Below, piece by piece: positions 4,439 to 54,519 of a DNA stretch of 64,000 nt; position 1 is the first letter of the stretch, and every line of letters begins with the position of its first letter. Location: IMG/VR virus record IMGVR_UViG_3300022223_000004, positions 6,499-70,498 of that record. One strand, 5' to 3'. The stretch comes from a virus. Both the position numbers and the translations under genes were made by a program. Below the pieces are notes generated by a model. That model was not told the origin of the DNA. It saw only the letters and a program-made list of their open reading frames with translations, and did not search any database.

Positions 4439-7400
4439 TTATTTAACTCCTGCAACTCCCGGTGATGGTGCTATAACAACAGCGGGAATTTCAATAAACT
4501 TGCCAGTGGCTGTATGGGTAACTTTTATTGTGTACCCTGCTGAATTGCCGCCATAATTTGCCGATAAATATCTTTGGTATATTGATGATATTATAGTTCC
4601 ATCCCAAACTGATCTTCCTGTATTTGATCCTATGTCAACCGTAAAATCTCCAACAACCGCACCATATGAACTAGCAAAAGCATACCAGAATGAACGAATC
4701 TTTAAAGCAATATTTGTGCTTGATGTCTCTGAGCCATAATAAACAACATGGCGAAAAGTAAAAGTAGCAACAACAATCCCCCCTTCTTCAAAACGAATAG
4801 TGGATTCATTCCACAATTGTGTTGAATAGGTATAGGTCGCCAAATTGTCATATGTATAAATCATATAGCCGGTTCTTTTCGGCCCGTAATTTGTGCCATC
4901 GTACTCAAATTGTATTTGTGGTGTTTGTACTGGTTGCAACGAAGATTTCTCAACCGATATTCCCGCTGAAATATAAGTTGCATCAAGGGAACTTTGTAAT
5001 CTACCGACTGAGCTTAAAGCGGTTGGAACTCGACCATCTGTTAATTCGGTTGGCCTGTTTGCAAGATACGTTGACCAATTGGCACCATACCCTGCTTGGT
5101 AGCTTGAGCCATTGTGACCGTAAAAAAATCTGTTTGTGCTATGGATCCATAAATCACCTGTATCGCCTGCTGGAGTTGTTGATTGTACAAAAATATTATT
5201 ATTGGTAGCTGAGGTTTCAATTCCAGAAAGCTTTGTATTTGCAGTGCCATCAAGATTCGCCAAACTTTTATTAATAACCTGAGTTATTAAGTCTGCCGAA
5301 TTCTCTGTTGCTAATGCACCTGCATCAGAAATATTAGCCATTACATTATTGGTAACACTGGATGCCAAATCGGCCCCATTGCCTAGTTGATAACTGGAAC
5401 CGTTATGACCATAAATATATTTATTGGTACTGTGGATCCAAATATCACCAGTGTCACCTGCTGGTGTACCAGTTTGGACAAAAATATTATTATTGGTTGC
5501 TGAGGTTTCAATTCCAGAAAGCTTTGTATTTGCAGTGGCGTCCACATTGGCTAAACTTTTATTTATAACTTCACCCGTGGATAAGTCCACATTATCTTTT
5601 GTCGCCAATGCACCTGAATCTGAAATATTAACCATTTGATTATTGGAAACGGAAGTTGCCAAATCAGCACCATTACCTATTTGGAAAGAGCTTCCATTAT
5701 GCCCATAAATATATTTAGTGGTGCTGTGAATCCATATGTCGCCATTATCACCTGCTGGTGTACCAGTTTGTACGAATACCTGGTTTTTTGTTGCTCCTAC
5801 ACTTGCAGGGTTAGGGGTAATTGGTGTCCAATTGGTCCAATCCCCCACCTCTCCATTTGCGTAGTATGATCGTATCCTATAATGTCGTGGTGCTGAGTCT
5901 GACACATCATCTATAACCGCGGGTTCTACAAAGTTACGGGTTACTTCTGAAGCTCCTGGGGACCCAGCAGAATCCGCGGCCCTTTCATATTCATAATGGG
6001 AAACGGCTGTTTGCCCCTCATCCTCTATCTCAAGTAGAATTCCATCTGGGATGGTTTTAAATGGCTTTAAAACTGGCTTTCTAGGTGTACTAGTTGGCAC
6101 AGTTTCATCCGCTCCTGGAGTATTAAGGGATTCGCTACCTGTATCATATGTACCCGAATTAGCTTGTTCCATTACCAAAACAGGGAATCCATTTTCAAAG
6201 GAATATTTTTTAATTCTATAAGTTCCAGAGATATCAGGAATATCAACGGTCACCATATCCCACCATCCAACTTGCAAGGCTTTCATGTTACATGGTATAG
6301 AAAGTATCTTTTGTTCCCTGGACCTCCTCTTTTCTATATTAGCGCGATACTGAGCACGGTATTCATTATCAATACCAGGACAATCTATCTCTATTATGAT
6401 TTGATTGCCGCCGTCCGCTGTTTCGTATGAACTGTCAGTCATCAATTTACAGACTTCCTCTCTGTAATCCCTTGATGCACTTACATAGTTTACCTTCACA
6501 GCATTATAAAGATCGCTAATCTGTTTTTTAGTTGTATAGGAAATAGGACCAGCTACCCAGGATTCATCTATAGTTATAGTTGGTGCGGTATATTCTCCAG
6601 CATGGCATTTCCATGTTCCTGCTATAACGTCAAAATTAATGACTCCTGCCATACAAGCTTCCAGCATATCTATATTATCTTCCGGCTCAGAAGAGGCGAA
6701 TGCTAAATTGGCTGTATATTTTTTAATGGTAGTGGTATCCGGAGCAAGGAAAGTGGTATCACATACATTGGCAGCGGCTGCAAAGGTATCCCAACCGTCC
6801 TGTGTAAAATCCTCATCTGGATCGGAACCGAGTCCACCATCTAATTCATCCATCACTATATAAGTAGCGGCTATCACCGCTGGGTTGTCGGACCATTCCC
6901 ATGTTGAGGGATCATTGGCCCTGTGCAACCCAGAGCCTCCCCTTGTGGTATCTTTCCGAACGTCATAGCATTTATTCCCTTTAATGAGCCTATTAAGCTC
7001 AGATGGTTTTCCATTTGGAAAAGCTTTCTGGAATTTCTTCTCATTATCTGCACCCATAGGTCTTATTAATTTCAATACCGTATAGGGAATGCCTTTTAGT
7101 TTATGGTTAACAGTCCAACCATCATATGCAGCCTCCAGCCATCCATTATAGGGCTGGGTATCTAATCCCTGATAGGATTGCAAGTATACCATAGGATTCG
7201 AGGAAGCATCTTTCCATTTGAATAGGTCAACGTAATGCACTATCCCAAGGTCCAGCACTATGTCCGCATCAGGTATTCTTTCACCATCAATCCAGAGGTC
7301 CTCTAGACCCTCAATTCCCCCTGTGTGTGTGATTCCATGAGCAATCCCCACATATAATTCTTCCTTTGATCCATCACCATCAACGTCCCTAGTTTTCACA

Positions 7401-16604: not shown

Positions 16605-16638
16605 AAAATCTAGGAGGAAGAGAATTCCCTTCCTCCAG
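16605..16638 (-). terminator. stem-loop after the major capsid gene
   Basis: GGAGGAAGGG-AATT-CTCTTCCTCC followed by TAGATTTT on the minus strand. Confidence 0.5.
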
Positions 16639-17774: not shown

Positions 17775-17986
17775 TGGATTTCCTCCATTAGTTTCAAGTT
17801 TTAAACAAGGCCCGAGGAGATGAATAATACATCACTTGAGGACCACATGGTATATTGCGGTCCCCCCGGGACTCATATAAAACTCCAACACCGTTGGAGG
17901 TTAATTATGTTTTTGTGAGGCAGTCCCTTTTATTCAGGACTGCCAAACAAGGGAATAATTTACCCTAAAAGTATTTCCCGTTCCAT

Positions 17987-18790
17987 TTAGGCAGCGGGGG
18001 TAACTTTAATCTCACCTTTAGCGATTTTTTCCAAATTGGAGCTAATTGCTTGGCTATCATTAGACAGGACAGTTCCTTGCTGGCCACCACCTCTATGTCC
18101 CTGAGAGCCATCACCACCAGCACCACCACCTTGAGAACCCTCAAACAAGAATGGAGCCTCCTCTGCCAGAGAAGAACACCATTCGGTGATGGATAGAGGA
18201 TTTTTCCCATCAGACCCATACAGCACAGTGCCGTCTGGGCCTATAGGAGTAACTTCTCCCTCCCTCAATTGGAATACGCTTCTGGCTCTTGCCAAAACGT
18301 CCTTCATGGCATTCTGCCGTACCGTTCCGATAGCAGAGACCCCCTGCTGGACTTCGGAATCAATAACCACAGTGGCCAGTTTACCTTCCACAGTAGTTTT
18401 ATCGGCAGTGGCCTTTGCCAAATTTTCTTCAATCTTTTTAATGCGACCCTCATAGTCTGACCGCATTCGTTCCGTTCTGCTCTCTACCAACTTCTCCACA
18501 TCACCAGCCTCGAGGAGTTGTTTTTCCTCAATAGCCCGTAACTTCTCTTGGTATTCGGAATACTTTTCAGGATCAATTCCTTTAAACTTCTCCATTTCTT
18601 TTTGGAGTTGTTCCCGTTCTTGTGCCAACTTGATATTGTTATTCCTGAATTCCCCCAATTTATCCTTAAAGGATGAATCGTCTTGGTCCAGAATATAGCC
18701 ATCAACGTCATTCCCTGCCTCTTTATAATGCTCCTTAAGGGCATCGGGCAATTTGGCATAGTCGTCTTTACTGATTAAGGTTTTTAACAT
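17987..18790 (-). CDS. capsid scaffolding protein
   Basis: 'LKEHY', 'EFR.NNI.L', coiled coil, 'APFLFE.S.GGGA.G'; directly upstream of the capsid gene. Confidence 0.85.
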   Translation of the reverse strand: MLKTLISKDDYAKLPDALKEHYKEAGNDVDGYILDQDDSSFKDKLGEFRNNNIKLAQEREQLQKEMEKFKGIDPEKYSEYQEKLRAIEEKQLLEAGDVEKLVESRTERMRSDYEGRIKKIEENLAKATADKTTVEGKLATVVIDSEVQQGVSAIGTVRQNAMKDVLARARSVFQLREGEVTPIGPDGTVLYGSDGKNPLSITEWCSSLAEEAPFLFEGSQGGGAGGDGSQGHRGGGQQGTVLSNDSQAISSNLEKIAKGEIKVTPAA

Positions 18791-24498: not shown

Positions 24499-26091
24499 TT
24501 ATTCCTTTTCTTCCTCTTCCTCTTCCTCCTCATCATCATCTATTTCCTCCTCATCTTTTTCTAATTCCATCCCACTGCCTGATGGGGTGCCCATCGGTAA
24601 AGGATCTCCCTCTAGGATCAATTGAAGCTCTTCCTCAATTGTCATATCTTCGGGGTACAATTCACCCTTTTTCAAATTATGAGCAAAAGTGCGCCAACTC
24701 ATTTTATTGGTCTGTACCAGCATAACCAATGCCGTAAGCATTTGAGGATCCAGCATCCTGGGCATATAGTCTTTATTAAAAATGCATTCTATTCCCAATG
24801 CTTTCTCTGGAGTTATTCCATACCACTGAGCTACCCACCTTAGTATTTGAGAAAAGCCAGATTCAACGGAAGCCGCAACGGAGGCTAAGGCACTGGTTTC
24901 AGCCGCCTGCCTTCTCTCCAGTGTTTCGGCTGCCTCAACAGCTTTTTTCGGTGCTTCTAAAATTCTGGCACCTAGTATTGCCATCTGGGCCTCTTTTTGT
25001 TCCAAGGCTCTTTCAATTGCAGACAAACCTTGGCCGGTGTATTCAAGATACTTTGCATCGGCTCCGGTTTGCTCTGATACCCAAGCAATTGCTGATCCTA
25101 TTTTCAATCTGGTCTCTTTAGGAAACCCTGTAACAAAGGCAGTGGGCAAGGCAGTGAAATGTCTTCCATGTTCCAGATCAGCAGATGACCTGTAATGGCT
25201 AAAATTCACATCTATCAGGTCTTCCAAAACAGGACTCTGCACCTTTGCTGTGGGTGTATCTGGTCCAAAGAATTGAAACGGAATATAATCCAGATATTTT
25301 CCTCTGATGGATACCTCAATATGCCGTTTCAATATGTATTCAGATTTATCAGCACCCTTTTGTCCATTAGGAGCCTTTTCATATAGTGAAACCAGATAGT
25401 ATCTTTTCTCCAGCCTCTCATGTTCCTCCTTCCTTCTCCTTTCTGCCTCTTCCAGAGTTTCTTCCTCTGGAGACTCCATAGCCTCCTCTGGCAACTTCAA
25501 TAGTTGGTTGATTTTCCATAAAGGCAATAATTGCAATACCCTTATCCGTTCTTTGACCACGGTAGTGAATGGGTCAGCACTATCAGGCTCTTCCGCTATC
25601 TCTGTTAAGACTACCATTGAGAGTTTCCATTCCCCTTCTACCTCTTCAGACTTCCAATTGATAATGGATTTAGGTCCATAAGATACTAGATAAGGGGCCA
25701 CATCACTGGTGGTTTCCTTATTGTCTAAAAGGACACCCTGTCTTCCTTTAGACAAAATATCAGAGAAGGTTTCCCTGGCGAAGGACTCAAAAGAAATATT
25801 TTCCTTTCCTACTCTGTCTAGGAATCCTTTACGGGATTCAGGGAATCCTATTACCTCAGGAGGTTTTCTAAAAACAATACCAACAAGCCCTCCCAATGTC
25901 CTGCCTGATGCATTGTAATAAGAGGCTCGCATTTTATAGGCATCATATTCCTGGGAATCCTGATCAGATAGCAATGGCAGTATTGCGATGCCGGCTTTCT
26001 TCACAGCCCGCTCACCAGCCACGGCAATTTCACATTTCTCCCAAACATCCAAATTGGCTGTATATTCCTTATGCTTAGTTTCAACTGGCAT
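24499..26091 (-). CDS. portal protein (DUF4055 type)
   Basis: 'YDAYKMRASYYN', 'G.VFRKPP', 'YIPFQF', 'N.SHYRSSADLEHGRHF..LPT'; follows TerL. Confidence 0.9.
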   Translation of the reverse strand: MPVETKHKEYTANLDVWEKCEIAVAGERAVKKAGIAILPLLSDQDSQEYDAYKMRASYYNASGRTLGGLVGIVFRKPPEVIGFPESRKGFLDRVGKENISFESFARETFSDILSKGRQGVLLDNKETTSDVAPYLVSYGPKSIINWKSEEVEGEWKLSMVVLTEIAEEPDSADPFTTVVKERIRVLQLLPLWKINQLLKLPEEAMESPEEETLEEAERRRKEEHERLEKRYYLVSLYEKAPNGQKGADKSEYILKRHIEVSIRGKYLDYIPFQFFGPDTPTAKVQSPVLEDLIDVNFSHYRSSADLEHGRHFTALPTAFVTGFPKETRLKIGSAIAWVSEQTGADAKYLEYTGQGLSAIERALEQKEAQMAILGARILEAPKKAVEAAETLERRQAAETSALASVAASVESGFSQILRWVAQWYGITPEKALGIECIFNKDYMPRMLDPQMLTALVMLVQTNKMSWRTFAHNLKKGELYPEDMTIEEELQLILEGDPLPMGTPSGSGMELEKDEEEIDDDEEEEEEEEKE

Positions 26092-26103: not shown

Positions 26104-27438
26104 TTAGTGTCCTAACAATCTATTGGTCTTAATTTCAGGTTTGTACGCGGGGAATAGCCTATGTACTGGATACCCCACAGAGTCCAATAAGTGACTCATT
26201 GCTTTATGATCCTTTCGGTTCTTTTTCTCATGGGTGTATTTATTCATGTACCCAATTAATTTTTTACACTCAGGGTCTATTGTCAGGGTGACCTCTTTGC
26301 TTCCTGAATAAAGTTTTCCATTCACTGAATTTTCCCTATCCCTCACATTGGGGTTGGCCTCTGGTGCATCAATTTTCCATCCAAAAGATTCAATAATAGT
26401 GAAATCGGTTCTACCATATTCGGCTGAGGTCTTTCTAGCTTTTCCTGTAGCATCAGGAAAAACCGTAGTGATACGGCACTCTCCTTCTCTGGGGTGTCCT
26501 CTAGGGAATACTTGTTTCTCCCTTATTTTATCACACATGGCATAGGTATCAGCATTAGGCAATTCATACTCAGCGACTATATGCATGTGGTTACCAGACG
26601 TCCAAAAAACTACTGCGGACATAGGATCCACATTGAAGTCCATTCCTACTCCGTAATGCGTACCAGGATCAGGCAGCTTCCTTATGTTCCTTTGCCTATC
26701 AAAAGAGTAATAAACCCTCCCGCCTGTTAAGTTTACAAAATTCCCTTGCACCAGTGCCTCAACGGCTAAGGGATCAAAAGCTTTTTCCAGAGTCTCTGCA
26801 TATGATTTATCTAATGCCAAATTGGCTCTGGTTGAGGCATGAATGACACCTAAATCATAATCATCCTTTCTTTCCCCCTCACATATATCATAGCCCCAGT
26901 TTAATTCTTCAGGAGTTCCAGTAAGTATCAACTCCCTCAGGCTGGCTTGTCTATCCCGTACCCTTGCTATCGACTCCTGCAAAACCTGTCCATCTTGGAT
27001 AAAAGGTTCATCTATCCATGCCGCTCCAATGTTAGGACCTTTTAATGAGTTAGGTTCTTCCCCTGAAGCTACCCAGATGGTTCCTATTCTTCCTCTAAAG
27101 TTTATCGTAAATTGGTGTTCCGATTTATTGAATTTATATCGAAGGTCTCTATGGATTGTTTTCTTACCATCTAGCAGGTTTTGGATTGTAGGTATGATTG
27201 TCCTTTTCGCCATCTTGTATGTTGGGGATATGGCAAGATAAGGGGCTGGAGCATTATGCAATGTTACCGCTATTGCTCTTTTGGCCCCTGCTAGGGTTTT
27301 TCCCGCTCCAAAACCAGCTACCAAACCTTTAATAAAATTTTTCTGATTCCAAAAGGCTCTCTGGTGAGGGAACATGCCCCCTTTTATAATAGTTCCGTCA
27401 GGGGCTATTTCTGGATCTTCTTCTCGCCAAAACTTCAT
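26104..27438 (-). CDS. terL: terminase large subunit
   Basis: Walker A 'AGFGAGKT', Walker B 'AWIDE', 'LTGTPE', nuclease 'GMDFNVDP', 'HLLDSVGY'. Confidence 0.95.
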   Translation of the reverse strand: MKFWREEDPEIAPDGTIIKGGMFPHQRAFWNQKNFIKGLVAGFGAGKTLAGAKRAIAVTLHNAPAPYLAISPTYKMAKRTIIPTIQNLLDGKKTIHRDLRYKFNKSEHQFTINFRGRIGTIWVASGEEPNSLKGPNIGAAWIDEPFIQDGQVLQESIARVRDRQASLRELILTGTPEELNWGYDICEGERKDDYDLGVIHASTRANLALDKSYAETLEKAFDPLAVEALVQGNFVNLTGGRVYYSFDRQRNIRKLPDPGTHYGVGMDFNVDPMSAVVFWTSGNHMHIVAEYELPNADTYAMCDKIREKQVFPRGHPREGECRITTVFPDATGKARKTSAEYGRTDFTIIESFGWKIDAPEANPNVRDRENSVNGKLYSGSKEVTLTIDPECKKLIGYMNKYTHEKKNRKDHKAMSHLLDSVGYPVHRLFPAYKPEIKTNRLLGH

Positions 27439-27450
27439 GCGATTTCCTTA

Positions 27451-28959
27451 TTATTTAATGATTATGGTTCTCCCAGCGCCCCTACCATGCACAGGTACCA
27501 ATGTGGCATCTGGTACCCTTATGGATTCTTGTGCAACCTTTTCTGGAATGTCTTTGTAATAATGTTTCGCATTCTCCTTAATCCATTCTACCTGTTCCCT
27601 ATAGGTCAATTTTACATTGCCCTTAAACTGATTACGGATCCTTAAAGCAATCCCAGCAGACACGTCCCTAGACAGTGAAGGGCCTTTTTTGTTTCCATCA
27701 GAAAACATAATTCCTATCTCGGCAAAGGTTAAAAGGAATTTTATCTCCTCTATATTCATAGCCAGAACCACATTGGCCTCTGGAGATAAAAACTGAAGTC
27801 CTTTTTTACAATGAGGGCAGGGGAGGACTGTATCTAATAGGTGCCCACCTCTGAGTTCCAGAGGCACAATGTCTCCCAAAATAAAATAACCTCCACAGCG
27901 TATGCACCAGACTTCCTTTTCCAGAGTTTCTTCACTCCAAGTTCCTGTCGTCACTATTTCCAGCACATGGGGTGGCGTCCATTCCGTATAGGGGATTTCT
28001 TGTAATGTTGATGGGTCATCAAAGGTATCCACAAAGAGGTTTTCATCCTTGATCGGAGCAAAGTTGTCCATTTGAAATTTTAGGAGATCAGTTGTGGTTT
28101 CCAGAAGGTGGTACAGAAAGCTCCTACCCCTGGTATCGCTCCAGTCTATATCTTTTCCCTCTATCAGGGCTTTAGAGGTCTGGGATAATACTTGGAGCAA
28201 TTGATTAGGAGCATCGGGCAATTTAGAGGAAGAATGCAACCAATCATGTAAAAAACCTATAAGGTCTTTTGCATTAGTGTTTGTGTCATCCTGATAATGC
28301 TGATAACGGGTGACCCTAATTGGAGGCAGGCGATGGCTTTTAGGTAAGTCGGTTGTTTTACCTGCTAAGTATTGCTCCAACCTATCTTTTAAATACATTT
28401 CAGACCCTTCAGGAAAACCTAAAGGCAAATATTTCACAAAAGTCTCCACCCTTTTAAGGGCCATTGTCCGTAAGTAATTAAAAGAGACCCTTCTGTTCCT
28501 GAGGTCCATATCCATTTCCTCAATCATCCGATTAAGGAATCCCTCCAGTGATTTTATTTGCCAAGGCTCACAATCTTGTAAAGGATCTGGAGTGGAATCA
28601 ATCTCTGGCAGGACTTCACTCCCTTTTGGTATTTTCAATTGCTCCCGCATACTGGTTAAAATCATAGCGGAATCATGGGTAAGGTCTGCTATATGTGATC
28701 TGAAGTCCTCTAAGGGTTTGTCTCCACAGAGGCACTCAGCATTCAAATCTACCAAATTGGTTATAAGGGTATCCACTGTATCAGGTAGGTCACTAATGCC
28801 TAAGGGTGTATTGGGGCTATCTGCTTTCATACGCCAAACATTTTCAAATAGGTCCACAATCTGGGCCAGTTTCTCTGGCTCTGCTAGGTAGACTCTGATA
28901 ATGTCTTGGAAAATGTACAGTAATCTGGACAATAGGGAATGGGTTGTTTCCTGGTTCAT
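27451..28959 (-). CDS. hypothetical 502-aa protein with C-terminal zinc ribbon
   Basis: Long helical ORF with CIRC...CPHC; lies between TerS and TerL. Confidence 0.75.
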   Translation of the reverse strand: MNQETTHSLLSRLLYIFQDIIRVYLAEPEKLAQIVDLFENVWRMKADSPNTPLGISDLPDTVDTLITNLVDLNAECLCGDKPLEDFRSHIADLTHDSAMILTSMREQLKIPKGSEVLPEIDSTPDPLQDCEPWQIKSLEGFLNRMIEEMDMDLRNRRVSFNYLRTMALKRVETFVKYLPLGFPEGSEMYLKDRLEQYLAGKTTDLPKSHRLPPIRVTRYQHYQDDTNTNAKDLIGFLHDWLHSSSKLPDAPNQLLQVLSQTSKALIEGKDIDWSDTRGRSFLYHLLETTTDLLKFQMDNFAPIKDENLFVDTFDDPSTLQEIPYTEWTPPHVLEIVTTGTWSEETLEKEVWCIRCGGYFILGDIVPLELRGGHLLDTVLPCPHCKKGLQFLSPEANVVLAMNIEEIKFLLTFAEIGIMFSDGNKKGPSLSRDVSAGIALRIRNQFKGNVKLTYREQVEWIKENAKHYYKDIPEKVAQESIRVPDATLVPVHGRGAGRTIIIK

Positions 28960-28984
28960 TTTTTCTCTCCTCTATTTTATTTTA

Positions 28985-29626
28985 TTATAAGAATGCCTCA
29001 TCTGGATCATACGCATCTTCCGTAGTCAATCCTACGTCGGTTGCCTTGGCCCAAGTATTCTTATCCCGTCTTTCAAGTATAGTTATATCCCGTACCCAGG
29101 TAGGAACAAACTTATCTGGAGCCAAACTTCTGGTGATTATTTTCTTTCTGAATAACGCTAAGGCCCTGTTTATCGCCAAATAATAATATGCATATTTTTT
29201 ATGAGATTTGGACGCCTTCTCTTCCCAGTCATCCTCATAAGATGCCACAAAATCCTTTCCTGCCTTCATCCAGCGGTAATGGGTATTTTCAAATATGCCC
29301 AATAGGAAACAGGCGTCATGGACTGGAATAAAATGGCTCAGATAAAAACACATTACTCGGCATAACTCTGGGGAACATTCTGCGGGGGACCCTACGGGAA
29401 GGAAAAAGTTTTCTGCCTCTTCCAAAGTGGCTGTACGCATATACTCTCGGAATAGGGTATCTTCTAATGGTTTAGCACCTTTCGGCTTTTTGCTGATTTT
29501 TATCCGTTTCCCCTGTGGAGTCCTTTTTTGGTAGGTTTTTAATTTAATTCTTTTCGGTTCTGGAATACCTTTCCCTTCTTTCTTTTTCTGGGACTTCGGT
29601 TTTCTTTTAATTTTGATCATAGGCAT
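28985..29626 (-). CDS. probable terminase small subunit
   Basis: Basic N-terminus, HTH-like 'HDACFLLGIFENTHYRWM', C-terminal 'ILERRD...W'; AAGGAGGTG RBS; first gene of the packaging operon. Confidence 0.65.
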   Translation of the reverse strand: MPMIKIKRKPKSQKKKEGKGIPEPKRIKLKTYQKRTPQGKRIKISKKPKGAKPLEDTLFREYMRTATLEEAENFFLPVGSPAECSPELCRVMCFYLSHFIPVHDACFLLGIFENTHYRWMKAGKDFVASYEDDWEEKASKSHKKYAYYYLAINRALALFRKKIITRSLAPDKFVPTWVRDITILERRDKNTWAKATDVGLTTEDAYDPDEAFL

Positions 29627-29758
29627 CAGAAACAGCACCTCCTTTTGGAGGAAACTAACAAAGTCCACGTTGGAGTCGAATTTTTCTGGAATATATTATA
29701 TTTAATTGGCATCCACATTCCTATTATAAAAGGCAAAGGTTTATTTTGATCAGTAAAT

Positions 29759-29983
29759 GAAGAAAGGGAGGAAGCCGGACTGATTGAAAGCCCAAGGGAA
29801 ACTTCCTCCCCTTTCTTCTGGTGATAAGACCTCTGGGTATCAGGCGTTTTAGGTCTTATCACCTACCCCCCAAATAATAGCCAGGAAACCATTATTTGGG
29901 TTCTCTCGAAAAGGTAAAGCGATTTGGGAAACCTTACCTTTTCTATACCACTCGAATAGGCTCGGTGTACCTATTCTAAGTGG
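29759..29983 (-). ncRNA. array of five tandem stem-loops (putative structured RNA)
   Basis: Inverted repeats at 29759-29818, 29820-29863, 29869-29900, 29908-29943 and 29948-29983; extra G-U pairs form on the minus strand. Confidence 0.6.
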
Positions 29984-30026
29984 CAGACCCTATCGTTAAT
30001 TGAGGTTCTTTTGTGTTTGAAAGGAT

Positions 30027-30058
30027 TTACCCTCTCCGTTTCATAGATCACCTCCTTT
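30027..30058 (-). promoter_or_regulatory. 13-nt perfect Shine-Dalgarno followed by mini-ORF MKRRG*
   Basis: AAAGGAGGTGATC-T-ATG AAA CGG AGA GGG TAA; the + strand GATCACCTCCTTT equals the 16S rRNA 3' tail. Confidence 0.65.
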
Positions 30059-30087
30059 TTGCCTATTTAATTAAATAAATTCAGCAC

Positions 30088-30513
30088 CTAAGTATATATC
30101 TCCTTTTCTGGCTTAATTTCCAAAATTATCCTTTTCTTTTTAGTCGCATACCTCATGGTAGCCCAGGTTCCTGACCTTTTCATTTCCTTCATGGTATTAG
30201 GAACTGCTATCAATGCTTCCGTTTGGTTCACTATTTCCTTATTCCTTTCTAGGAAATGCCTGGGTGGTTCTGAAACATCATAAGGAGCATAGGCCCTAAA
30301 TTCAGTATTAATAGGAGGGTGCTGGTGTATTCTGAATCCTAAATGTTTTGCAATAGCCGCGGCATCTTCATCTGCCCCTATACAATCCCCATGGTGGAAT
30401 ACCCTAAATCCCATACCCCATAATTCCCTTAAAGTTTGCTTTAACAGAGTTAATTGCCTTGCAGTCATTCCTTTTCTGGATCCTGTAAATCCTACGTGCC
30501 TGTCTTGGAACAT
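30088..30513 (-). CDS. SLOG-superfamily (YspA/DprA-like) protein
   Basis: 'VGFTGSR', 'HHGDCIGAD', 'RNKEIV....ALIA', 'SGTWAT.RYA'. Confidence 0.85.
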   Translation of the reverse strand: MFQDRHVGFTGSRKGMTARQLTLLKQTLRELWGMGFRVFHHGDCIGADEDAAAIAKHLGFRIHQHPPINTEFRAYAPYDVSEPPRHFLERNKEIVNQTEALIAVPNTMKEMKRSGTWATMRYATKKKRIILEIKPEKEIYT

Positions 30514-30819
30514 ATCACTCTCCTACTTTCTGCTGGTTTTTTCTTCGTTTATTTAGTTTAGGAAATAAATCAAAAAGGACAATAATGTTCACCAAAGCCA
30601 CATATGCCATCAGTGCTACAAATACTACCAAATTCTCAATCACCTTCTTCCTCTCCTGTTTTTATCAATATTCCGTCCATCCATGCCTCTATAGATTCCT
30701 CTATATCGGTTGGTTTTTCTAGGCAATGAGATATTCCAATAGCCTTTTGCATATCCTTTTTCAGGGACTCTGGTATAACTTCCTTGTTTTCTTTCTCGTC
30801 CTCTTCCATTTCCTTTTCC

Positions 30820-31113
30820 TCACAACTTTTCTATCTGATTCAATTTTTTCTTGGCATACATTACAGGATCCTTCACAGACCCATTGGCTATCCTCTTTAA
30901 TGCTGCCGTGGCAAGTCCTAAAGACTTAAATGGCCTTTCATGCCTTTTCCTTTTTTCTAGGTACTTGGCTTCCTGCTCCTCTTGTCGTTTGGCAACCGTT
31001 TCTGGAGAATGCTGTTTACAGTAACCTCCCATAACAGCCTTTCTGGAACACCGATGCTGGCGATAAGTGCCGTAACCCCATACTAATTGCACACATTGGT
31101 CATTTCTACTCAT
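30820..31113 (-). CDS. small Cys/His zinc-binding protein
   Basis: 'QC...HRCSRKA..GGYCKQH'. Confidence 0.65.
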   Translation of the reverse strand: MSRNDQCVQLVWGYGTYRQHRCSRKAVMGGYCKQHSPETVAKRQEEQEAKYLEKRKRHERPFKSLGLATAALKRIANGSVKDPVMYAKKKLNQIEKL

Positions 31114-31355
31114 ATTAAAGCTCCTAACCATTTTAATATGGCAAAACAATTCTCCCCACTAGGCATTTGTCCTTTCTTCATCCTAGAAATTGTGGATTCG
31201 TTTACCCCCATCTGGACACAGGCATCTTTTATGGTAATCCCATCCACCAGTGCCTTTCTTTTAATATGGGCATATATGTTTTCCAAGTTTTCTTCCTCTG
31301 ACAATGGTGGAAGACTTGGTATTGGTGTGTTATAGTTGTTATCCTGCTTGTTCAT
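31110..31355 (-). CDS. XRE/Cro-like HTH regulator
   Basis: 'ITIKDACVQMGVNESTISRMKKG..PS..N...I..WLG'. Confidence 0.8.
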   Translation of the reverse strand: MNKQDNNYNTPIPSLPPLSEEENLENIYAHIKRKALVDGITIKDACVQMGVNESTISRMKKGQMPSGENCFAILKWLGALI

Positions 31356-31595
31356 CTATCTACCCTCTATTGGGATGGCTGACTCACTTAGCATAGGCCC
31401 AGCGGTTATGACTACCGTTGAACGTATCCCCGCCTCAACCATCCTTTTTGACATGCAGTGTATGCACAAGATTCCACCTCCTTCTTCGTTTGGCGCAATC
31501 TTTTCCCAAACTTCATCTGGGACGACGGCTTCAACCCAATCCGGTCTGTTGTAGTTGTACCCGCAATCGTAGCAACTCAATACCATATCTATCAT
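31356..31595 (-). CDS. zinc-finger hypothetical protein
   Basis: CYDC...VPDEVW..I...GILCIHCM..R. Confidence 0.7.
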   Translation of the reverse strand: MIDMVLSCYDCGYNYNRPDWVEAVVPDEVWEKIAPNEEGGGILCIHCMSKRMVEAGIRSTVVITAGPMLSESAIPIEGR

Positions 31596-44588: not shown

Positions 44589-47183
44589 TTATTCAAAGTC
44601 AGTGGATGAAACCACCAGTAAAGTTTTTTGGTCTGCCCAATTATCCCCCACTTCAAACTCAGCGATCAGTGGCACATTAATAAAGTCAAGGTCAGGGAAA
44701 ACCATTATCTCTCCTATCAACAATACATCATCCTTATAGGTATCTGCATTTAAGTAAAAACCTATTTCATCATGGGTATTAAGTATTTGGGCAAAATCAG
44801 TTTCCGCATCAAGCCTATTCTGTGCATCAATGGTAATATCTGATGCCAACCCTTGGATACCAGTATTAATCACCTCATTATATTTGATAGGACCTTGACG
44901 GCGCCGACCTAATAATGATTCCACATATCCAAACTGGTGATAGTCCCTCAGTGTTTTATTTTGCCAATCTTTCAATCCTGGATGCTCTTCCCAAAACTCT
45001 CCTGCTAATTCAAAAGCCAGATCGGTTGTGCATTTCATATACCTTGCCAAAGAGGGAGGGGCTGCTCCATAAATTAACGGGAAAACCCATCCATTCTTTG
45101 CGGCATGTCTGGCTTGTTTTATTAAAAGTTTTTTATCCTCAATTTTGTATTCTTCATAGATTCTTTCCAGAAATCCTTTATCCTCTTCCATGAAACGATT
45201 TGCCCAGGTCTGGTGTACATCCATTCCCCCATTTAAAGACTCCACCAATTTTTCATCCCTAGATGCCATAGCCGCACAACGGAACTCAATAGCACCATAA
45301 TCTCCTAAAACCATTTTCATCCCTTTCGGTGCCTTTATAACCTTCCTTATGTATTTATTTTTATGTTTAGGGTAGTTCTGGAGATTCGGATCGGAGCTAC
45401 TTAGCCTCCCCGTAGTGGTAAATTTATCATTATAATTAGGATGAATTCTTCCATCGTCTGCGGTATAGGTATAAATAGCCTCTAGGTTGGTTCCTTTTCT
45501 GGAGTTTAATGACCTATACTCTATAATTAAATGAGGAGATTTATACTCATTTTCAGGGATGGATAGTAATGCCTTTTCATCCGTTGATTCCAACACCTCC
45601 TTCCTTTTCAAAACATCTCTAAAAAGGAAAGAAACATCTTGGGTGGATTCAGGATTAAAATCTGACTTCCCAGACATTCTTTTGAATTTTTTAAGCTCAG
45701 AGGTTTTGTCCAATTCTTTCTTGATTTCAGAGAGCCTCTTGGTAATCTTTTTATCCAATCTCTTGGTTTCTTTAAGATCAGGAACTAATCCTTTAATAGA
45801 TAGGGAAGAAAGGGTACGACTAGTCCTTATATGATGTGGATAAACAAAGTCTAAAAGCCTCCTGTTTTCCTTTCTTAATAAAACCTTGCGCTGTTGTTCA
45901 AATAGCAAATAGGTCATTTTGGCATCGGCTCCATTATATAACAGTACCTCTTCCAAATCCTCTCCAATCATATTTGTTTTATCTAAAGGGAAAAAGGATT
46001 TCATTCTAATTCCAAAATACTGGAAAACTAAAGAGTCTAAATCCAATCCAGTTTTTCCTTTCTTCCTGGGACGCTGGTCTAGGCAATAGGCTTGGGACAT
46101 GGTATCTTCCCATCGCACCTCATCTTGTCTCCTTTTTAGGTAGAGTGTGCCTATACCAAATACACTACCAGACCATTCCATTTCCATATTAGCATTATGG
46201 GCAATCTTATTTCCTGATTTAGACAAAAAGCTTTTAAACTTTTTCTTAACCTTCTCCCTTAGTTTAATTGGCCATCCTCTAGGGTGTAATAAAGGAAAAG
46301 AGTAAGTCTCCTCTCCATCAGATATGGAAGCTGTGAGTAGACAAGAATCAGAGAAGTAAGGGCGCAGTCGTTGAGTTTCATAATCAATTGCAAACTCCTC
46401 CTTTTCTGCAAATCTATCCAAAACCTTGCAGAATTTTTTATATCCTTTTTCTGAATAGTCAGACAAAACCTTAACGCCATCCAGCACCTGTTCCTTATCC
46501 TCAAAAAATGGAATAGGAATTTTTCTTTTGGACTCCCTTTTATGCTCCTTATGGATTTTTTTTAATTCTAATGTAAAAATATGCTCCTCAGGGGATTCTC
46601 TGTACCCTCCTCTTTTATCATGTATCCCAGAATCTACCAAAGAGTTTAACGAAGGTAAGCAATAATACCAGCAAGTATGCTTTCCAATCCTAATTGGAAA
46701 TCTTTTGCCTCGCCAAATCATCAGATTGCTCTCACCAGAAAATCTTTTTAATGGAGTGCTACCCAACCCTATCACTGCCCAAGGCTTTCTTTTCTCTATG
46801 TCCTTTTCTATCCGAGAATGGCAACAATTTACCTCTACCTCAGTGGGGTCCCTGTCTGAGGGAGTAACACATTTTATTACATTGGAAAACCCTGCTGATC
46901 TTTTCATCTCCCTGGGCAAAGAATCGAACAGGTACTCCTGATCATCTAAACTCAGTGGATGTCCATTCATATCGGCGGAGATGGAAGGTGCTGGTCCTAC
47001 AAAATAGAAAATAGGGTGTTTAGCACCTGCATCCTCCATTTTGGGATTTTCCATTTTTTTATTCCTGTCTAAGGGACAGGCTTTACACCCATACCCCCAA
47101 AGGTCCTCTAAAGGGATTTTTCTTAAATCCCTAACAGAGGCTTTTTTGGAAGCAATGGAATCCTGCTTAAAGAAAAAAGACAT
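44589..47183 (-). CDS. family A DNA polymerase with N-terminal family-4 UDG-like domain and 3'-5' exonuclease
   Basis: UDG 'C..CPL...NVIKC..P..R.PT..EV..C'; exonuclease 'IDYET','HNA','YNGADA'; polymerase 'TGRLSS..PNLQN','DYGAIEFR','R..AK...FP.IYG','HDEI'. Confidence 0.93.
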   Translation of the reverse strand: MSFFFKQDSIASKKASVRDLRKIPLEDLWGYGCKACPLDRNKKMENPKMEDAGAKHPIFYFVGPAPSISADMNGHPLSLDDQEYLFDSLPREMKRSAGFSNVIKCVTPSDRDPTEVEVNCCHSRIEKDIEKRKPWAVIGLGSTPLKRFSGESNLMIWRGKRFPIRIGKHTCWYYCLPSLNSLVDSGIHDKRGGYRESPEEHIFTLELKKIHKEHKRESKRKIPIPFFEDKEQVLDGVKVLSDYSEKGYKKFCKVLDRFAEKEEFAIDYETQRLRPYFSDSCLLTASISDGEETYSFPLLHPRGWPIKLREKVKKKFKSFLSKSGNKIAHNANMEMEWSGSVFGIGTLYLKRRQDEVRWEDTMSQAYCLDQRPRKKGKTGLDLDSLVFQYFGIRMKSFFPLDKTNMIGEDLEEVLLYNGADAKMTYLLFEQQRKVLLRKENRRLLDFVYPHHIRTSRTLSSLSIKGLVPDLKETKRLDKKITKRLSEIKKELDKTSELKKFKRMSGKSDFNPESTQDVSFLFRDVLKRKEVLESTDEKALLSIPENEYKSPHLIIEYRSLNSRKGTNLEAIYTYTADDGRIHPNYNDKFTTTGRLSSSDPNLQNYPKHKNKYIRKVIKAPKGMKMVLGDYGAIEFRCAAMASRDEKLVESLNGGMDVHQTWANRFMEEDKGFLERIYEEYKIEDKKLLIKQARHAAKNGWVFPLIYGAAPPSLARYMKCTTDLAFELAGEFWEEHPGLKDWQNKTLRDYHQFGYVESLLGRRRQGPIKYNEVINTGIQGLASDITIDAQNRLDAETDFAQILNTHDEIGFYLNADTYKDDVLLIGEIMVFPDLDFINVPLIAEFEVGDNWADQKTLLVVSSTDFE

Positions 47184-53565: not shown

Positions 53566-54417
53566 CTACAACTGGTCATTTGCATCCCTAAAAAAGGAAG
53601 AAAAGGATATTCCATATTTGGAGAGGTACCGAATTAACTCTTTTTCAGAAGGCTTATCTCCTCCCTTTTCTTCTAGGAAGACCTCACTCCATTCCCTTAG
53701 TTTATAATAAGGAAGGCGAGTCAACCTTCTGTTTAATAATATCAAATTTTTATTGTTAATTAATAATTCTTTTTTCTTTTCCCTGAATTCAGGCTCTTTT
53801 ATTATCCTTAAAGCTGTTTTAATTCCTATCCCTTTAATGCCTGGCAATCCATTATGTCCACCGGTCATGGAAGTAACTTCATTCCACGAATGGGGGGTGA
53901 TACCGAATTCCTCAAAAAAATCCTTGGCGGTGTAAAAACCTTTTTTAGTCCCCTTATATAAGGAAAATTTTAAGTGTATAAATAATTGATAGAGGTCAGA
54001 GTCATTGGACATTGCCACCACCTCTCCATAATCATGGCTTAAATGGGTATAGATGGCTATTAAATCATCTGCTTCCAATCCCTCCCTAACAGCATAGCAG
54101 GCACCAGACATCCTCAAATAATCCATACAAATCTTTTTTGATCTATTTATATGGTCTATGACCTCTGCCTCTTCCTCAGTGAGTTGGCTTTGTTCTTTGT
54201 GGTGTTTATAGTCTCCGCAGTCAGCATACCTATGGTACGGAGGAGAATCTAAGCAATAGACCACTTTGTCTGGACGGATTTCTTTTATTCCAGTGGCAGT
54301 TTGCATTATTATTCCAAATAATGCTCCAGTAGGTTTGCCTTTATAGGACAAATCAGAATAAGCATGAAGGCTTTTATGGAATAAACTACTAAAATCAATC
54401 AATAATAATTTTTTCAT
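53566..54417 (-). CDS. 5'-3' exonuclease / flap endonuclease (T4 RNase H-like)
   Basis: 'LLLID', 'EADDLI', 'SNDSDLYQL', 'LPGIKGIGIKTA'. Confidence 0.9.
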   Translation of the reverse strand: MKKLLLIDFSSLFHKSLHAYSDLSYKGKPTGALFGIIMQTATGIKEIRPDKVVYCLDSPPYHRYADCGDYKHHKEQSQLTEEEAEVIDHINRSKKICMDYLRMSGACYAVREGLEADDLIAIYTHLSHDYGEVVAMSNDSDLYQLFIHLKFSLYKGTKKGFYTAKDFFEEFGITPHSWNEVTSMTGGHNGLPGIKGIGIKTALRIIKEPEFREKKKELLINNKNLILLNRRLTRLPYYKLREWSEVFLEEKGGDKPSEKELIRYLSKYGISFSSFFRDANDQL

Positions 54418-54433
54418 TCTTTTCCCTTGATAC

Positions 54434-54472
54434 AAAAAAAATCCCAGTAGGTAGGAAAACCTACCCACTGGG
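54434..54472 (-). terminator. rho-independent terminator
   Basis: CCCAGTGGGTAGG-TTTT-CCTACCTACTGGG followed by A and T8. Confidence 0.9.
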
Positions 54473-54476
54473 GGTG

Positions 54477-54519
54477 CTTCGGCATACCGCAAACAGGAGA
54501 GAAATAGGTATGCCAGAAG
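54477..54519 (-). ncRNA. 3'-UTR hairpin exposing an anti-SD loop UAUUUCUCUCCUGUUUGC
   Basis: Stem CTTC-T-GGCATACC/GGTATGCC-GAAG; the loop is the reverse complement of the early-gene RBS motif AAACAGGAGA. Confidence 0.55.

Follow-up and report, generated by a model that had tools for sequence, protein, structure and literature searches.

We analyzed an array of five adjacent hairpins that lies upstream of the small terminase gene, terS, in viral DNA from IMG/VR virus record IMGVR_UViG_3300022223_000004. The window, by which we mean the whole stretch analyzed, covers 64,000 nucleotides (nt) of one strand (positions 6,499 to 70,498 of the record), and positions are counted from its first letter. 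The record is linear and 70.5 kb long, with a CheckV completeness estimate of 76%. All long open reading frames (ORFs) of the window are on the minus strand. A replication and nucleotide-metabolism block lies above 30.1 kb (family-A DNA polymerase, SNF2, DnaB-like and UvrD-like helicases, and a MazG-like pyrophosphatase), and a packaging and head block lies below 29.6 kb (terS, a 502-amino-acid [aa] orphan gene, terL at 26104 to 27438, the portal gene at 24499 to 26091, a Mu-F-like head protein, and a P22-type coat protein). With the terS start called at the ATG at 29626, the noncoding gap between the two blocks spans 29627 to 30087, or 461 nt. The five hairpins occupy 29759 to 29985 of this gap and are separated by spacers of 1 to 7 nt, with limits taken from the minimum-free-energy fold (Table 1).

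The inverted repeats are present where a first-pass annotation of the sequence had placed them, and their folding is far beyond chance. The minus strand of positions 29740 to 30000 folds as five independent hairpins at −110.5 kcal/mol, compared with a mean of −69.3 kcal/mol (standard deviation, 5.6) for dinucleotide shuffles (z = −7.41), and none of 200 shuffles was as stable. Among 1,276 sliding 250-nt segments of the minus strand, the array is the most stable (−107.2 kcal/mol versus a mean of −60.0 kcal/mol; standard deviation, 10.7). The 64 kb contain 11 inverted repeats that are perfect over arms of 10 bp or more and have spacers of 3 to 45 nt, versus 3.1 (standard deviation, 2.0) per simulated 64-kb sequence (n = 30); 4 of the 11 fall within 185 nt of the array, in 29759 to 29943. 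The whole 496-nt leader gives a z-score of −7.26, and its centroid structure retains the five local hairpins. The second most stable minus-strand stretch of the window is found at 18050 to 18400 (−100 kcal/mol per 250 nt), inside the ORF at 17987 to 18790.

Table 1. Features of the terS upstream region, listed in the direction of minus-strand transcripts (the motif is RGUUUCCY, described in the text)
Feature	Position	Strand	Description
141-aa gene	30088 to 30513	−	Last gene of the replication/nucleotide-metabolism block; family matches all below threshold
Shine-Dalgarno sequence AAAGGAGGUGAUC and mini-ORF	30027 to 30060	−	Very strong Shine-Dalgarno sequence and 5-codon mini-ORF, MKRRG-stop (30044 to 30027), between the upstream gene and the array
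Hairpin E	29946 to 29985	−	First in the sense direction; 16 pairs, one bulged A, 7-nt loop ACACCGA; arms of 5 + 7 bp bridged by a U·G pair and the bulge
Hairpin D	29908 to 29943	−	13 pairs: 10-bp perfect arms plus G·U, G-C, and U·G; 10-nt loop starting UUCCC; tip module GGUUUCCC..GCU
Hairpin C	29869 to 29900	−	14 pairs: 10-bp perfect arms plus 4 (3 of them G·U); loop UCCU; tip module GGUUUCCUGGCU
Hairpin B	29820 to 29863	−	13-bp perfect stem, inner 3-bp helix, loop AUACC; no GUUUCC module
Hairpin A	29759 to 29818	−	Largest of the five and the last; lower stem of 17 bp containing a bulged G (arms of 10 + 6 bp); internal loop UUCCCU; module AGUUUCCC..GCU; 6-bp upper helix; 7-nt loop
A+T-rich spacer	29627 to 29758	−	132 nt between hairpin A and terS; two TATAAT hexamers, no full sigma-70-type match
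Fourth motif copy, AGUUUCCU	29638 to 29656	−	Octamer at 29656 to 29649 leads into hairpin CCUCC-AAAA-GGAGG
terS (small terminase)	28985 to 29626	−	213 aa, ATG at 29626 (database gene call); long Lys/Arg-rich N terminus; first gene of the packaging operon

The stems had been described as unrelated in sequence. An alignment of the five hairpins with MAFFT detected no global likeness. The description does not hold throughout, since the tips of hairpins A, C, and D are one module and hairpins E and D have a helix in common. This helix, GAA[U/A]AGG:CCU[A/U]UUC followed by GAG, carries a compensatory U-A to A-U flip, and the inner helix of E (GAAUAGG:CCUAUUC) is paralogous to the base of hairpin D. 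The common helix with its compensatory change suggests that the array probably grew by duplication with pairing preserved.

The gap also contains a 78-codon ORF (29626 to 29862), and if it were a gene, hairpins A and B would be incidental to a coding sequence. Its stop codon overlaps the terS start as UGAUG, and its codon score of −0.004 falls between those of genes (0.34; standard deviation, 0.14) and of off-frames (−0.81; standard deviation, 0.33). However, its GTG start sits within the stem of hairpin B, tblastn against 46 loci returned no match better than E 0.5, and no open frame covers hairpins E, D, or C. The structure signal is far above chance. We give the coding explanation a very faint chance.

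Strand preference of the array

The two strands of the array are not equivalent as RNA. The plus strand folds at −84.8 kcal/mol (z = −3.56), which is 26 kcal/mol weaker than the minus strand. Counted hairpin by hairpin, 11 G·U pairs form on the minus strand and 2 on the plus strand, and the stem extensions formed on the minus strand become A·C mismatches on the plus strand. The minus-strand loops contain 18 C and 3 G among 48 nt, making 37.5% C and 6% G where the strand as a whole has 17% C and 23.5% G. The first-pass annotation had pointed to C-rich loops and tips and to G-U extensions favoring a minus-strand RNA, and both observations hold up on counting. Its proposal of an RNA-level element on the minus strand is backed by the difference in fold energy, the bias in G·U pairs, and loops that are rich in C and poor in G, and the fold models indicate that the array is most likely a sense-strand (minus) RNA.

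The same measurements bear on a plus-strand antisense RNA, which would expose GGA in its loops (GGGAAAC and CAGGAAAC) and act as a CsrA/RsmA-type sponge or as an antisense regulator. The loops of A, C, and D do carry GGA on the plus strand, and the plus-strand fold beats its shuffles, but it falls short of the minus-strand fold by the margin given above and loses the 11 G·U pairs to A·C mismatches. Its loops would also be G rich, which is unusual in structured RNA. No plus-strand promoter or terminator match flanks the array, and all genes are oriented the opposite way, so that we regard an antisense RNA as highly improbable.

Terminators, the loop motif, and the terS leader

We scanned the minus strand for terminators, defined as a G+C-rich stem with a loop of 3 to 8 nt followed by a U tract in which 5 or more of 8 nt are U. 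Within 29000 to 30600, none of the five hairpins was called a terminator, and no canonical terminator was found between the upstream gene and the array. Hairpins E to B are not simple terminators because they have no U tract. Hairpin A is terminator-like, with an A-rich 5′ flank, a G+C-rich core (GGAGGAAG/CUUCCUCC), and then the U-rich run UUUCUUCAUUU; its tail has 8 U among 11 nt. Like Rho-independent terminators and their tandem clusters, the array ends a transcription unit with hairpins that are stable and contain G+C, but it differs from them in the lack of U tracts in E to B and in the 27-nt loop of A, and the terminator-like sites of the phage itself look different.

Those sites have clear U tracts and lie on the minus strand at 54472 to 54443, 33276 to 33258, 17899 to 17883, and 16636 to 16613. 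The one at 54.5 kb had been put forward as an anti-Shine-Dalgarno hairpin analogous to the array; it scans instead as terminator-like, with a 13-bp stem and then eight U after one A. It lies in a TTG-start ORF (53566 to 54492, a mechanical call), and the gene therefore probably starts further downstream. The site at 16613 to 16636 follows the coat gene, and its stem (GGAGGAAGGG/CUCUUCCUCC) has the same core as that of hairpin A. The site at 17899 to 17883 is found, together with two other stable hairpins, in the gap before the P22-type coat gene (17775 to 17986, minus strand; z = −6.1). Homology of the terS gap to this coat-gene gap was rejected on a local alignment score of 19 versus 16.4 (standard deviation, 2.4) for shuffles.

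The tips of hairpins A, C, and D share the module RGUUUCCY-N(0-8)-GCU, which bears out the earlier remark that GUUUCC and GCU are common to three loops. This extended module has five copies on the minus strand of the window and none on the plus strand, and three of the five are these tips. The octamer RGTTTCCY alone has 13 minus-strand copies in the 64 kb, 4 of them within 285 nt here (Poisson P ~1e-7, for a motif that was chosen after it had been seen). UCCC is unpaired in A and D, and UCCU is unpaired in C. The fourth copy of the octamer forms the anti-Shine-Dalgarno (5′) arm of a hairpin that, in the predicted fold, sequesters the Shine-Dalgarno (SD) sequence of terS. This SD-masking hairpin folds at −10.5 kcal/mol with its flanks, emerged from both the terminator scan and the folding, and is kept in the centroid structure of the leader. 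Pairing of the loops with the terS SD over 6 to 7 bp is possible when drawn by hand.

A shared loop motif of this kind could belong to a stable trans-acting regulatory RNA of about 250 to 300 nt. Its C-rich loops would pair with the G-rich ribosome-binding sites of host or phage mRNAs in the style of RNAIII and the Rsa RNAs, or it would serve as a protein sponge with at least three loop copies in the style of CsrB and RsmZ, and the terS leader would be one target. This explanation draws on the exposed UCCC or UCCU in three loops, the C-rich and G-poor composition, the divergence of the stems next to conserved tips, and the recurrence of the motif at the terS ribosome-binding site; hairpin A could be the 3′ terminator, and the very strong SD and mini-ORF lie on the 5′ side. 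Ribosome initiation at a strong SD is reported to shield the Bacillus subtilis hbs mRNA from RNase J1 (PMC5737220). There is also precedent for loops that bind SD sequences: UCCC loops of Staphylococcus aureus RNAIII and Rsa RNAs, such as RsaE, do so (PMC2790875), and anti-SD loops occur in the cuckoo RNAs of alphaproteobacteria (PMC4615179). The array is like these RNAs in having several hairpins with unpaired UCCC-type loops, variable stems, and conserved loops. It is unlike them in showing no promoter match of its own, no detected conservation, and no predicted target enrichment, in its much longer stems, and in its position inside a junction of co-directional phage operons.

The target comparison was made with 84 candidate phage start regions, comprising all minus-strand ORFs kept and including the dubious ORF78. 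The mean duplex energy of the loops with these regions was within 0.4 standard deviation of that with 1,500 random sites, and loops B and E and the full loop of A paired slightly worse with start regions than with random sites. The anti-SD regulator proposed in the first-pass annotation has one anchor in the sequence, in that the GUUUCCY of three loops equals the anti-SD arm at the terS ribosome-binding site, but the loops pair no better with the 84 candidate starts than with the random sites. A trans-acting RNA is further disfavored by the absence of a promoter match upstream of hairpin E, by the lack of conservation in 24 loci and four virus records searched with a covariance model (see below), and by perfect stems of 10 to 17 bp, which are longer than typical; seed-presenting hairpins of small RNAs usually have shorter ones. 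We consider it unlikely.

On the other side of the array, the SD AAAGGAGGUGAUC is perfect, being complementary to the 3′ end of 16S rRNA over 13 nt. The 64 kb contain exactly two copies of the 11-mer AAAAGGAGGTG, one at the mini-ORF SD and one at terS, 413 nt apart. Judged from sequence, the mini-ORF and this twice-only 11-mer may mark an old terS start that was displaced by a 402-bp insertion. The A+T-rich spacer downstream of hairpin A is a possible site for the promoter of the packaging operon. The peptide MKRRG resembles the basic N termini of related TerS proteins (MKR..., MKVVVRRRG...).

Relatives and RNA families

TerS is resembled by only five other proteins in a set of 5.8 billion proteins, at 49 to 56% identity. 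Metagenome and viral contigs provided ten loci with TerS relatives (five from each; L017 and L020 are the same contig), none of which has a long structured gap. The gap before terS measures 37 to 81 nt in L017, L021, L022, and L018/L023, 158 nt in L016, and at least 142 nt in L015. For the closest two relatives, the folds of the gaps are no more stable than those of shuffles (z = −1.62 and +0.95). In the three relatives compared, the genes preceding terS bear no relation from one phage to the next, and no homologue of the upstream 141-aa gene was found next to terS in the relatives examined. Portal relatives gave 13 loci at 23 to 37% identity; 10 of the 13 were scanned, and no segment exceeded −3.9 standard deviations (extremes not checked for position). 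The TerL protein shares 45 to 49% identity with those of Vibrio siphophages of the MAR10/SSP002 type and about 28% with those of Dhillonvirus, Kagunavirus, and Jersey-type phages. Homologues derive from sediment metagenomes. Searches with the TerS protein alone in viral contigs yielded 10 pattern matches and no relatives, and searches with a TerS profile in representative genomes yielded 27 pattern matches and no relatives, so that the latter gave no prophage or host clue.

The gap sequence itself had no blastn match among 50,697 phage records. Viral contigs contained no match to an exact pattern for hairpin B or to one for the loop of A, genome contigs contained none to the latter, and a pattern for the tip module had one match, not clustered, in three related virus records. 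A promoter motif common to 20 gaps was sought, and only SD-like 9-mers were shared. The closest two terS relatives share the 11-mer CCCGTGCTAGT about 40 to 60 nt upstream of terS (~350 to 365 in L015 and ~845 to 860 in L016); it is absent from the gap of the window and may be a shared promoter or regulator site.

These comparisons also bear on a role at the DNA level, in which the segment would be a pac or cos terminase site, a replication or priming signal in single-stranded DNA, or a small inserted cassette's scar or cargo, with the hairpins as DNA palindromes and the four GTTTCC copies as protein-binding sites. The array is directly upstream of terS, where cos or pac sites often lie, and GTTTCC is present in four copies of one orientation, 29 to 306 bp upstream of the terS start. 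The core stems form palindromes with perfect Watson-Crick pairing, relatives lack synteny at the junction, and the AAAAGGAGGTG pair brackets a 402-bp segment whose removal would leave a gap of ~48 nt, like those of relatives. Yet strand asymmetry and C-rich, G-poor loops are features of RNA and not of duplex sites, and GTTTCC is not enriched near terS in any of seven related loci. The exact patterns located no other hairpin copy in the viral and representative-genome collections, no terminal inverted repeats were seen by eye, and cumulative GC skew makes no turn at the array. We find a DNA-level role improbable.

The first-pass annotation had suggested a comparison with Rfam. With Rfam 15 at gathering thresholds, the whole window gave no matches, and a permissive scan of 28500 to 31500 gave three, all below threshold (21.4 versus 39, 20 versus 83, and 18.3 versus 50 bits). 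ARAGORN found no transfer RNA or transfer-messenger RNA genes in the 64 kb. By these comparisons the array is an orphan, absent from every relative examined and from catalogued RNA families. Group I and group II introns, retrons, and guide-RNA scaffolds were rejected as candidates, with no Rfam match and no TnpB domain; no search was aimed at reverse transcriptase. The TnpB/Cas12-type domain PF07282 was not found in the 70.5-kb record, and the neighboring proteins tested contained no such Pfam domain.

One sub-threshold match, to the Rfam family CRISPR-DR47, lies on the plus strand over the 5′ arm of hairpin A and touches on an earlier suggestion that the array is a CRISPR decoy. As a mimic of a CRISPR repeat or guide RNA, the array would be an RNA anti-CRISPR that soaks up a host Cas protein. 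The stems of CRISPR repeats are much shorter than 10 to 17 bp, the range seen here. Small structured phage RNAs with such activity have been published, namely the Racr mimics of repeats (PMC10651486) and rAcrIIA1, a mimic of a multi-hairpin single guide RNA (bioRxiv 10.64898/2026.06.03.729762). The array is like them in being phage encoded and made of hairpins, but it showed no significant likeness to any model of a CRISPR repeat or trans-activating CRISPR RNA. The CRISPR-DR47 match (E = 0.99) scored 21.4 bits, below the gathering score of 39; a pattern derived from it matched 21 loci in 185,579 representative genomes, each time as a single copy and never in an array; and the record has no TnpB/Cas12-type domain. 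The decoy idea is not supported by these results, and we find it scarcely credible.

Several other features of the region were recorded. The 502-aa orphan gene (27451 to 28959, minus strand), between terS and terL, has a poor Atlas model and weak Atlas leads; it matched no Pfam, PHROGs, or NCBIfam family and has no homologue in the loci of relatives. Relatives L021 and L017 also hold 2.3 to 3.7 kb of other DNA separating terS from terL. No RNA-binding family was matched among the proteins neighboring the array. The family-A DNA polymerase (44589 to 47183, minus strand) has an N-terminal domain of the uracil-DNA-glycosylase superfamily (Pfam E 3.6e-7). Short contigs from three DNA runs on the region, whose cover does not include the hairpins, showed no variants.

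A possible cis-acting element of the packaging operon

At a likelihood we put somewhat short of even, we favor the reading that the array is a noncoding, lineage-specific, cis-acting RNA module on the minus strand that controls the packaging operon at the RNA level. We base this on the modeled sense-strand fold, the absence of a canonical terminator before the array, the terminator-like hairpin A, the masked terS ribosome-binding site, and the motif common to the loops and the mask. The position of the gap, between the polymerase, helicase, and pyrophosphatase genes of the replication block and terS, terL, portal, and coat genes, also argues for it. Under this model, transcripts from the upstream genes would run into the array, whose stable hairpins would form a barrier or insulator through 3′-end protection or processing (trimming back to the hairpins) and partial termination at hairpin A. 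The packaging genes would be expressed from transcripts that start in the A+T-rich spacer or read through A. Translation of terS would be set by the SD-sequestering hairpin, and the GUUUCCY loops may share their ligand with the terS anti-SD arm, be it a G-rich SD sequence or a protein that binds RNA.

Several results weigh against this reading. The terS relatives, at 46 to 56% identity and with gaps of 37 to 158 nt, have no comparable fold. A covariance model of the array, R1 (241 positions, 85 pairs), found nothing beyond the array itself in 24 loci and four related virus records (28 to 67 kb); its one extra match overlaps the array on the plus strand (E 0.68/E 0.18). With no homologous array found, there is no between-genome covariation. 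Hairpin A is no canonical terminator: the loop it encloses has 27 nt, and interruptions break its U tract. A scan of the minus strand upstream and downstream of the array found no sigma-70-type promoter, save one match at 9 of 12 positions that lies inside hairpins D and C. The enrichment of the motif is a post hoc observation, and part of the strand bias could come from G·T pairs, which also form in single-stranded DNA. The first-pass annotation had made an RNA role depend on structural conservation in relatives. Such conservation is formally lacking, but the relatives are too distant for an intergenic RNA to be expected in them.

Known systems offer partial parallels for a cis-acting array. 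The one Dhillonvirus locus that we checked has, before terS, a hairpin with a U run, the sequence TTATAAT, two leader hairpins, and an SD, and by analogy both it and the array place sense-strand hairpins at a module junction. The array differs in having five hairpins over ~230 nt rather than two short ones, repeated C-rich tips, and no recognizable promoter. Model R1 had no match in the Dhillonvirus locus L047, and the likeness in layout is one of analogy, not homology. The put antiterminator RNAs of phage HK022 consist of two hairpins just after a promoter, and T7 RNase III processing sites are single hairpins between genes; both work in cis, on transcription or on the processing of mRNA. Like these, the array consists of adjacent stem-loops of a phage transcript without conserved stem sequence, with a cis activity that is putative here; unlike them, it has repeated C-rich tips. 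In the 3′ untranslated region (UTR) of S. aureus icaR, a UCCCC motif reportedly pairs with the SD of the same mRNA. Cis anti-SD control of icaR by its own 3′ UTR has been described (PMC3868564). The array would likewise put a C-rich motif into the untranslated part of a transcript whose own SD, complementary to the motif, could be masked by it. It differs in that the terS SD already has an adjacent anti-SD arm, and the additional copies are in the loops of upstream hairpins, where pairing is only predicted.

A more specific possibility, which we rate as distinctly unlikely, is that the array is an RNA landing pad or sponge. Three tips and the terS anti-SD arm would then present GUUUCCY to one RNA-binding protein, encoded by phage or host, or to G-rich ribosome-binding sites, and occupancy would time the opening of the terS ribosome-binding site. 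The CsrB and RsmZ sponges are composed of tandem hairpins with unrelated stems and the same short loop motif, which also overlaps the ribosome-binding site region of target mRNAs. The array resembles them in repeating one loop motif on three of its five tips and at the terS ribosome-binding site, but the motif is GUUUCCY and not GGA, and only three of the five loops carry it.

Catalogues of structured noncoding RNAs from phages are poor, and outside model phages little is known of the way siphophages time their switch to packaging and head genes. The array is the most extreme RNA fold in the window, it is sited at the switch from replication to packaging, and it is tied by a motif to a masked terS ribosome-binding site. 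If it is only a nuclease barrier or insulator, it would be an ordinary, though unusually elaborate, intercistronic structure. Should the link between loops and mask prove functional, control of terminase expression at the RNA level could be tested directly at this locus. If the landing pad is real, it would amount to a Csr-like or RNAIII-like switch that times DNA packaging in a tailed phage, with a new class of RNA and a new loop motif.

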